Shown here piece after piece: positions 30,601 through 32,833 of a stretch of 64,000 nt of DNA. Source of the stretch: Escherichia coli (lineage in GTDB: Bacteria > Pseudomonadota > Gammaproteobacteria > Enterobacterales > Enterobacteriaceae); the NCBI RefSeq assembly GCF_002854065.1, contig NZ_CP024147.1; one strand, 5' to 3'. Position 1 is the first letter of the stretch. Each line of letters opens with the position of its first letter. The position numbers and the translations under genes are program-made. The notes under the pieces were generated by a model. The model had not been told where the DNA came from and did not search any database. It saw nothing but the letters and a program-made list of their open reading frames with translations.

Positions 30601-30695
30601 GACTTTTTCCTGTTATCTCGCGGCGATTTTACTATGGATGTTATTCCCGTAATCATCAACTACCGTTAGTTCATATTCTGGGTAATGACTCCAAC

Positions 30696-31199
30696 TTATT
30701 GATAGTGTTTTATGTTCAGATAATGCCCGATGACTTTGTCATGCAGCTCCACCGATTTTGAGAACGACAGCGACTTCCGTCCCAGCCGTGCCAGGTGCTG
30801 CCTCAGATTCAGGTTATGCCGCTCAATTCGCTGCGTATATCGCTTGCTGATTACGTGCAGCTTTCCCTTCAGGCGGGATTCATACAGCGGCCAGCCATCC
30901 GTCATCCATATCACCACGTCAAAGGGTGACAGCAGGCTCATAAGACGCCCCAGCGTCGCCATAGTGCGTTCACCGAATACGTGCGCAACAACCGTCTTCC
31001 GGAGCCTGTCATACGCGTAAAACAGCCAGCGCTGGCGCGATTTAGCCCCGACGTATCCCCACTGTTCGTCCATTTCCGCGCAGACGATGACGTCACTGCC
31101 CGGCTGTATGCGCGAGGTTACCGACTGCGGCCTGAGTTTTTTAAATGGCGGAAAATCGTGTTGAGGCCAACGCCCATAATGCGGGCGGTTGCCCGGCAT
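30696..31199 (-). CDS. insB: IS1 InsB (expressed as InsAB' by -1 frameshift)
   Basis: 167-aa ORF overlapping insA in the -1 frame. Confidence 0.9.
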
Positions 31200-31393
31200 C
31201 CAACGCCATTCATGGCCATATCAATGATTTTCTGGTGCGTACCGGGTTGAGAAGCGGTGTAAGTGAACTGCAGTTGCCATGTTTTACGGCAGTGAGAGCA
31301 GAGATAGCGCTGATGTCCGGCAGTGCTTTTGCCGTTACGCACCACCCCGTCAGTAGCTGAACAGGAGGGACAGCTGATAGAAACAGAAGCCAC
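31118..31393 (-). CDS. insA: IS1 InsA
   Basis: [43 protein letters not shown]... Confidence 0.9.
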
Positions 31394-31426
31394 TGGAGCA
31401 CCTCAAAAACACCATCATACACTAAA

Positions 31427-32833
31427 TCAGTAAGTTGGCAGCATCACCGACTCGTTGATGCTCTGAAGGTATTTTCTCATTTCTGGGGATGTTTTGTCGT
31501 AATCGTGCATAAACTTTTTCAGTTCTTTATACACATCATTATTTAGCTTTACATTGTCGCGAACTAAAGTTTGTACCAATGGTATCAAAATTTCGAAACG
31601 GGACGGTTTGTCATCAATACTTGCCAGGGTTTTGAATACTCCTGTGTATCTGTAACCTAAGTGCTTATTGACAAGTTGAGTGGTCCATCGGCCAGGCATA
31701 ATATCTTCACAGCGCAAATTTTTTATCATGGTATTAGTGAACAATGTTCCAAATATGTTGCTTTTTTTAATGAAGAGGTTGTTTATTTCTCCATTTGAAA
31801 AGATGGTGTTTGATAAGTCGCTTTCAAAACATGATATATTGGATAATACACAACCAAAATAATACCCATGTGAAAGGTTGCTCTTTTTTATTGTTATATT
31901 TGATAGCAACAGTTTATTTATATTAATATTAGGGGTAGTCACATACTGGATCTTTTGCTCGTTAAGTTCATACATCTCCAGCGATTTATTATAGGGTAAT
32001 AAAAGTATAAATTCCTTTATATTATCTCCGCAGTAAGAAAAGACAACATCAAATTTATTGGTGATCATGTTTTCAGTTGAGCAGTAAGCTGATTTTTCTA
32101 TTAACTGACTGGGCACGCTTTTAAATAAAGATAATTTTTCACATAGTTGTGAATATGCCGAATTGCTAGTTTTAAAATTCTGCCATGTTATTTGCTGGTT
32201 ATCATCTGTCGATGAGGCGGGGATTTTATTGCATTGCTCATTGTATAGCTCAGGGAAAATATTTTTTTTAATTAGCTTTTTGATTTCCTGGTTAAGATGA
32301 CTTTTTTTCTTGTCTATTGCACTATATTTAGCGTTTTGTGACGTCTCCTGATGAGCATAAAATGACTGGAGATTTCTGCAGGCCTCATAAAATATTTCAG
32401 GAGTATATAGCTGTGGGTATATTTCCTGGTTGAAGTTTGCCTTTAAAAACTTAACGAATTTTTCATAGCATTCTTGATATATCTTAATCTCTTCAGAAAG
32501 ACATTCGCTTGTTCTGTCATCAAAAACATCCAATCTAAGTAATGTGATGCCTTTGTGTTTAAAAAAAGAAAATTGAACTGTATGTTCTATGAGTTTACAT
32601 CTATAAAACTGTGCATCTCTCAGATGAGTATATTGAAAAAAATGATGAAGGACTGGAGATGGTTTAGGCAAATCCTGACTTCTGAAAAAGTCATCAAACA
32701 AAATTAAGAACTCTGTTTTATACTCGCAAAACACTTTTACTAACTCATTTCGTCTTGTTTTATTTATTATTACATCATCTACTATATTTGATTTATAAAG
32801 ACAATGTGGCGAAGTTGAGATACCATCTGTCAT
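31427..32833 (-). pseudogene. Pentapeptide-repeat protein, EspX-like T3SS effector family candidate, 3' end replaced by IS1
   Basis: 468-aa AT-rich ORF with C-terminal repeats (LSNITIKKSNLSHGYYFGCVLSNISCFESDLSNTIFSNGEINNLF...); final codons GTG ATG CTG CCA ACT TAC TGA lie inside the IS1 inverted repeat. Confidence 0.55.

Follow-up and report, generated by a model that had tools for sequence, protein, structure and literature searches.

The stretch of DNA analysed here (the window) comprises 64,000 nucleotides of the Escherichia coli contig NZ_CP024147.1. Between nhaR and rpsT it carries a copy of the insertion sequence (IS) IS1, which is bordered on one side by the remnant of a chaperone–usher fimbrial operon and on the other by a shortened espX1 gene (Table 1). 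A sequence-only reading had described this element as a 768-bp IS1 with intact ends and had taken it to mark a deletion junction. Extraction of the ends confirms the first of these points: the left end is GGTAATGACTCC, the right end closes with ...GGCAGCATCACC, and 21 of the 30 terminal nucleotides match between the inverted repeats. Both transposase frames are found, and their products cover complementary halves of the IS1 transposase model (NCBIfam NF033558 transpos_IS1), InsB' at 143.8 bits against a cut-off of 100 and InsA at 90 bits. The A6C frameshift motif AAAAAAC lies at IS1 position 307, and over its length the element is 98.96% identical to IS1A of E. coli K-12. Because the ends, the insA and insB' frames, the A6C motif and the inverted repeats are all present, we identify the element, by sequence, as an intact insertion sequence of the IS1 family.

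The two 9-mers that border the IS1, CATATTCTG on the left and GACTCGTTG on the right, are equal at 3 of 9 positions when compared position by position, so there is no 9-bp target duplication, and the mismatch of the flanks noticed in the sequence-only reading stands. We attribute the missing duplication to a deletion and therefore do not count it against the identity of the element. When positions 27100..33700 of the window were compared by megablast with 5,426 complete E. coli genomes, many strains were seen to carry a longer version of the locus. As the intact reference we used the locus of strain CUWW06 (L001, to which all L001 coordinates refer), where the order is nhaR, a 319-aa fimbrial family protein, an 816-aa usher, a 227-aa chaperone, a 177-aa major subunit, espX1 (473 aa) and rpsT, with the islet genes all on the minus strand. 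As the sequence-only reading had envisaged, alignment to intact nhaR–rpsT loci measures what is missing. Left of the IS1 the alignment to L001 1..4081 is ungapped, and right of it the alignment resumes at L001 5619; exactly 1,537 bp (L001 4082..5618) are gone from the window, and the IS1 sits at the junction of the colinear flanks.

The missing segment holds 616 bp of the chaperone gene, the entire major-subunit gene, the 301-bp intergenic region 5' of the major subunit and the final 37 nt of espX1. The usher ATG now lies 80 bp from the IS1, a distance made up of a 12-bp spacer and the final 68 bp of the chaperone gene; this closeness had been remarked on earlier, and the chaperone and major-subunit genes then expected in the gap are both present in CUWW06. 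Intact loci do not put the start of the usher gene beside the end of espX1, and the flanks equal CUWW06 base for base up to both IS1 ends (at least 99.9% identity), leaving no flank errors that could mask a 9-bp duplication. Across 6.8 kb of locus flanks the two strains differ by two single-nucleotide polymorphisms (SNPs) and one intergenic indel, none of them at the junctions. Because the chaperone gene survives as a 68-bp stub and espX1 in truncated form, we take the window to carry the derived form of the locus; the short arrangement appears clearly as the derived state, and we interpret it as the scar of an IS1-associated deletion. Literature searches on espX1, IS1 and fimbrial genes, and on nhaR, rpsT and the usher, found nothing relevant to this locus.

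Table 1. Features of the fimbrial–espX1 locus and further IS1 copies in the window; L001 coordinates are those of the intact CUWW06 locus
Feature	Window position	Strand	Description
Fimbrial family protein gene	27178..28137	-	319 aa; last operon gene, intact; = L001 579-1538, RefSeq-annotated
Usher gene	28150..30600	-	816 aa, full length; NCBIfam NF011763 1477 bits, cut-off 933
Chaperone gene, 3' stub	30613..30680	-	68 bp; = L001 4014-4081; last 21 residues and stop codon
Left flanking 9-mer	30672..30680		CATATTCTG; = L001 4073-4081; one of two IS1 target sites
IS1 at the fimbrial locus	30681..31448	-	768 bp, intact ends
insB'	30696..31199	-	167 aa; co-directional with espX1 and usher
insA	31118..31393	-	91 aa; co-directional with espX1 and usher
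espX1, 3'-truncated by 37 nt, fused to IS1	31427..32833	-	468 aa; intact gene product 473 aa
Right flanking 9-mer	31449..31457		GACTCGTTG; = L001 5619-5627; other IS1 target site
IS1 in caiC	49015..49782	+	perfect 9-bp duplication GCCACCGCG; placed by K-12 alignment
IS1 in caiT	54935..55702	+	IS1A-like variant; perfect 9-bp duplication GGTTCGTTA; placed by K-12 alignment

Consequences for espX1 and the fimbrial operon

On the right side of the element the reading frame of espX1 runs on into the IS1, with its stop codon 22 nt inside. The protein is native up to residue 462, after which six residues encoded by the IS1, VMLPTY, stand in for the 11 native C-terminal residues MFLMKKISHQD. The sequence-only reading had seen here a pentapeptide-repeat open reading frame that ends in IS1-derived codons and had called it EspX-like. 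The IS1-derived ending is thus correct, whereas the pentapeptide label, although EspX1 is reported as a pentapeptide-repeat type III secretion effector, is not significantly supported (Pfam Pentapeptide_4, E = 0.13; NCBIfam Qnr, 20 bits against a cut-off of 240). The identity of the gene comes from orthology to RefSeq-annotated genes: the retained region, which takes in 1,385 nt of espX1, shows 99.9% DNA identity to what RefSeq annotates as espX1 in CUWW06. The 468-aa fusion protein is on record for E. coli as ‘type III secretion system effector EspX1’ (AUJ94680.1 / WP_101969312.1). We read this record as an IS1 fusion artefact and not as a natural variant, a point that matters little beyond correct annotation.

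On the left side, a complete chaperone–usher gene set is absent. The usher and the adhesin-like 319-aa gene are intact, the chaperone gene, which spans L001 4014-4697 in its intact form, is reduced to 68 bp, and the major-subunit gene is gone. The identical usher protein is present in many intact loci, and the 319-aa gene differs from that of CUWW06 by one SNP, at 27986. No NCBIfam model matches the 319-aa protein, and its counterparts in related loci have no recorded Pfam family; from its position it is presumed to be the tip adhesin. The 301-bp intergenic region that was lost is where the operon promoter would be expected, and a promoter scan found consensus matches in the deleted segment to be no more numerous than in shuffled sequence. 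Because chaperone, major subunit and the DNA upstream of the first gene are all missing, we infer that the operon is dead and can no longer yield the fimbria. On the same strand, espX1 and insAB now immediately precede the usher and adhesin-like genes, a new gene order that might allow read-through transcription of the latter pair. As orphans of a dead operon, the two genes deserve to be annotated as such.

Relatives, age of the junction and neighbouring IS1 copies

Over a 15.8-kb IS-free stretch, two complete genomes match the window at about 100.0% identity, whereas all others reach at most 99.2%. They are those of CUWW06, from wastewater in Thailand, and strain 100416, from human stool in the Gambia. 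In CUWW06 the locus is intact; in 100416 a separate IS1, flanked by the perfect duplication CAGTAATTC, lies in the usher gene. The window junctions at the fimbrial locus, in caiC and in caiT were found in none of the 5,426 complete E. coli genomes, CUWW06 and 100416 included. Outside its own strain, the window allele turned up in no more than three read sets, which contain the right junction. In one of these, the Logan short-read assembly of ERR3970133, the espX1–IS1 junction is reproduced at 100% identity over 7,411 bp, reaching 26 nt into the IS1. Since near-identical relatives are without the window junctions and the usher insertion of 100416 is a separate one, this clone appears to have seen recent IS1 activity. 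With window and CUWW06 differing by only three changes in 6.8 kb, little time can have elapsed, and all three IS1 insertions of the window, together with the deletion, appear to be younger than a very recent common ancestor with CUWW06 and 100416.

The other two IS1 copies of the window lie in caiC and caiT, as alignment to K-12 confirms, and both have the perfect 9-bp duplications ascribed to them in the sequence-only reading. The fimbrial and caiC copies are 100% identical. The fimbrial copy differs at 8 positions from the caiT copy and at 8 from K-12 IS1A, 7 of these being the same change, and the caiT copy is one base apart from K-12 IS1A, so that two IS1 variants stand side by side in the window. 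No mosaic signal was found in the fimbrial IS1 that could serve as a mark of recombination, a comparison made uninformative by the identity of the fimbrial and caiC copies. An exact look-up of the caiC–IS1 fusion reading frame found no record. The Logan contig of ERR3970133 in which the espX1–IS1 junction lies (L008, 20,214 bp; compared with window 31423-51636) exceeds the 17.6 kb from the espX1–IS1 junction to the caiC IS1. Judged by the span of this contig alone, ERR3970133 probably lacks the caiC insertion; if so, the fimbrial IS1 would predate the caiC copy, to which it is identical, and might have given rise to it. At a further site in the window, 24248-24259 (dnaJ to hokC), the IS186A that K-12 carries between dnaJ and mokC/hokC is absent, and the K-12 alignment jumps from 15390 to 16728.

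Routes to the deletion

The sequence-only reading had offered two explanations for the pattern, an adjacent deletion promoted by IS1 or recombination between two IS1 copies. The comparison with intact loci supports this pair, and both remain the leading candidates, as the deletion product alone cannot separate one from the other. Adjacent deletion by IS1 is the route we favour, and we regard it as the probable one, though with some reserve. We envision that IS1 would first have inserted simply, with a 9-bp duplication, either at GACTCGTTG, within the final codons of espX1, or at CATATTCTG, within those of the chaperone gene. The transposase would then have driven an intramolecular replicative transposition of the resident IS1 into the other 9-mer, 1.5 kb away. 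One product of this step would be a chromosome that retains the IS1 with one old and one new junction; the other would be a non-replicating circle of the 1.5 kb plus a second IS1 copy, which would be lost. Each product would retain one copy of the new target, and it is because the target copies would be split in this way that the surviving IS1 would show unlike flanks. Colinear flanks of like orientation mean that any reciprocal product would have been a lost circle, and not a second chromosomal junction, so the search for a reciprocal IS1 elsewhere in the genome that the sequence-only reading had suggested is unnecessary.

Adjacent deletion is favoured because it requires two events rather than three in a lineage that has almost not diverged from its intact relative. 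It is favoured also because it is the route taken by all comparable IS150 cases of the long-term evolution experiment, where 14 of 14 events that combined an IS with a deletion, without a duplication, were a simple insertion followed by an adjacent deletion (PMC11708052); being IS150 events, they serve only as an analogy for IS1. A hint that the espX1 side is a favoured IS1 target comes from strains C3728 and 74-2, in which another IS1 variant, with a perfect duplication, occupies L001 5610-5618, the 9-mer directly next to the right junction of the window.

Several points weigh against an adjacent deletion. The intermediate that it predicts, a duplicated IS1 at either junction in an otherwise intact locus, was not found: a BLAST search with junction-spanning queries against the 5,426 complete E. 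coli genomes met neither the left nor the exact right junction, its only find being an IS1, in two unrelated strains, in the 9-mer beside the right junction; the species-representative genomes, scanned twice for exact patterns, contained neither junction; and in an exact look-up the chaperone–IS1 fusion protein predicted for a chaperone-side ancestor was not on record. In addition, the product is identical to that of recombination between two direct IS1 copies, and, given how often IS1 strikes the operon in this clone, a transient two-copy state is not as unlikely as usual.

Recombination of this kind would start from two independently inserted IS1 copies that point the same way, one at CATATTCTG in the chaperone gene and one at GACTCGTTG in espX1, both bordered by duplications of their own; RecA-dependent exchange over the 768-bp repeats would then excise the 1.5 kb. 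What would be left is one IS1 with the outer half of each duplication, which is what the unlike 9-mers and colinear flanks look like. The supply of elements also fits, with IS1 abundant at three copies in 64 kb, an independent strike on the operon in 100416, and strikes on the islet in many lineages. The inspected IS1 copies at the locus all have the same orientation, although the selection of hits favours that result, and recombination between IS copies is listed as a frequent cause of missing duplications (PMC11708052). The price is a third event in a lineage only three changes per 6.8 kb from its intact relative, and the searches that failed to find the intermediate, in the 5,426 complete genomes, the species-representative scans and the exact protein look-up, likewise found no single or double insertion. 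We therefore hold recombination between two IS1 copies to be possible, with the balance of evidence rather against it.

A third and less established route would have had no intermediate, in keeping with the failure to find one. An IS1 from elsewhere, for example the identical caiC copy, could in theory have entered as the 1.5 kb were lost, by a two-site attack or by capture at a break, leaving no duplication. We know of no evidence for IS1 inserting and deleting in one step. For IS5 and IS481, insertions without a duplication have been proposed to coincide with rearrangements (PMC11708052), and a single-step event here, if true, would extend this idea of insertion with rearrangement to IS1. 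The same study, however, found all 14 of the IS150-plus-deletion cases in the long-term evolution experiment to be multistep adjacent deletions, and a missing intermediate is weak evidence in a clone sampled by the window, two sister complete genomes and three read sets. We consider a single step improbable. An assembly or sequencing artefact, in which the IS1 was misplaced or 1.5 kb collapsed, can hardly be entertained: beyond the general proneness of a multi-copy repeat such as IS1 to misassembly nothing positive speaks for it, the short-read assembly of ERR3970133 independently contains the espX1–IS1 junction and excludes misassembly on that side, and the junctions are clean to the base between flanks near-identical to CUWW06.

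Comparison with other IS1 events

The AT-rich islet around both 9-mers has a GC content of 36-37%, against 51% for the window. The whole fimbrial/espX1 islet (window 27500-33000) has a GC content of 29-43% and lies between flanks of 48-54%. IS1 prefers AT-rich DNA. The low GC content of the islet is in keeping with horizontal acquisition and may account for the frequency of IS1 insertions in it. Simple, duplicated IS1 insertions among the inspected loci are those in espX1 of 23CRST014 and in the usher gene of SWYHX138.261ft and 100416. In E. coli 042 an IS1 in the adhesin-like gene (L003 1383-2150) has no duplication and about 44-47 bp are missing beside it (about L001 1386-1429), which amounts to a small IS1-adjacent deletion. 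The insertion shared by C3728 (L005 4047-5100) and 74-2 (L006 4046-5099) has the perfect duplication AGGAACATA, and both strains show a 2,442-bp deletion corresponding to L001 2883-5324. The two strains share the IS1 site, yet their copies differ, at 95.3% and 97.7% identity to the window IS1, a difference that points to gene conversion between copies of IS1 or to noise in the assemblies. Descent of the window IS1 from this insertion was considered and rejected: with AGGAACATA at L001 5610-5618 it would need an extra, exact 9-bp loss at the right end, the copies are only 95-98% identical to that of the window, and the deletion in C3728 and 74-2 is a separate one without an IS at its junction. 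The window case is one more member of a repeated and independent series of IS1 events in the nhaR–rpsT islet of E. coli, and this islet could be used as a natural series in which to study how IS1 chooses its targets and how deletions form.

The nearest parallel is IS1A of E. coli K-12 MG1655 (19796..20563; L007 2797-3564). It lies between nhaR and rpsT in the same islet and the same orientation as the window IS1 and is also without a duplication (AGTAATTGC versus TACCTCAAT). Its junctions correspond to L001 716 and 7222, and it replaces 6,505 bp (L001 717-7221), nearly the whole fimbrial operon together with espX1; the scar retains a 138-bp stub of the adhesin-like gene, and espX1 is wholly removed. 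The window differs from it in both junctions, in the smaller size of its deletion and in its IS1 variant, which is 8 of 768 positions apart. The two also differ in age and spread. The K-12 junctions are old and widespread, the left being present in 562 and the right in 571 of the 5,426 complete genomes (the 9 extra genomes with a right junction may carry further-modified left sides), whereas the window allele was seen in its own strain and three read sets only. With neither junction in common and the variants 8 positions apart, nothing supports a shared origin of the two. IS1 copies can be homogenised by gene conversion, which leaves a slight residual chance for such an origin.

On a wider scale, Shigella and enteroinvasive E. 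coli have undergone IS1 expansion, loss of fimbrial adhesins, and IS-linked gene interruptions and deletions (Hawkey et al. 2020, PMC7373316). The window resembles them in that IS1 copies are tied to gene interruptions and to the deletion of fimbrial genes. A Shigella origin, suspected from the density of IS1 and because complete RefSeq E. coli genomes lack the window arrangement, was rejected: the exact fusion protein is recorded for E. coli, and the two nearest genomes are E. coli as well. The window is unlike Shigella in that its source is E. coli, and its three IS1 copies were counted within 64 kb only.

Adjacent deletions promoted by IS1 are known from classical genetics, in the gal region and on plasmids. 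The window shares with them an IS that is kept at the junction, the lack of a duplication, flanks that are colinear with the ancestral, undeleted locus, and a presumed fixed end of the IS. No difference in kind separates the two; for the window, the mechanism is read from the product, and either end may have been the fixed one. A general account of adjacent deletions and missing duplications at insertion sequences already exists (PMC11708052). Gene loss by an insertion sequence at this locus is real but ordinary, already known as textbook IS biology, and the window adds a single dated case in which IS1 has eroded an accessory islet rich in AT.

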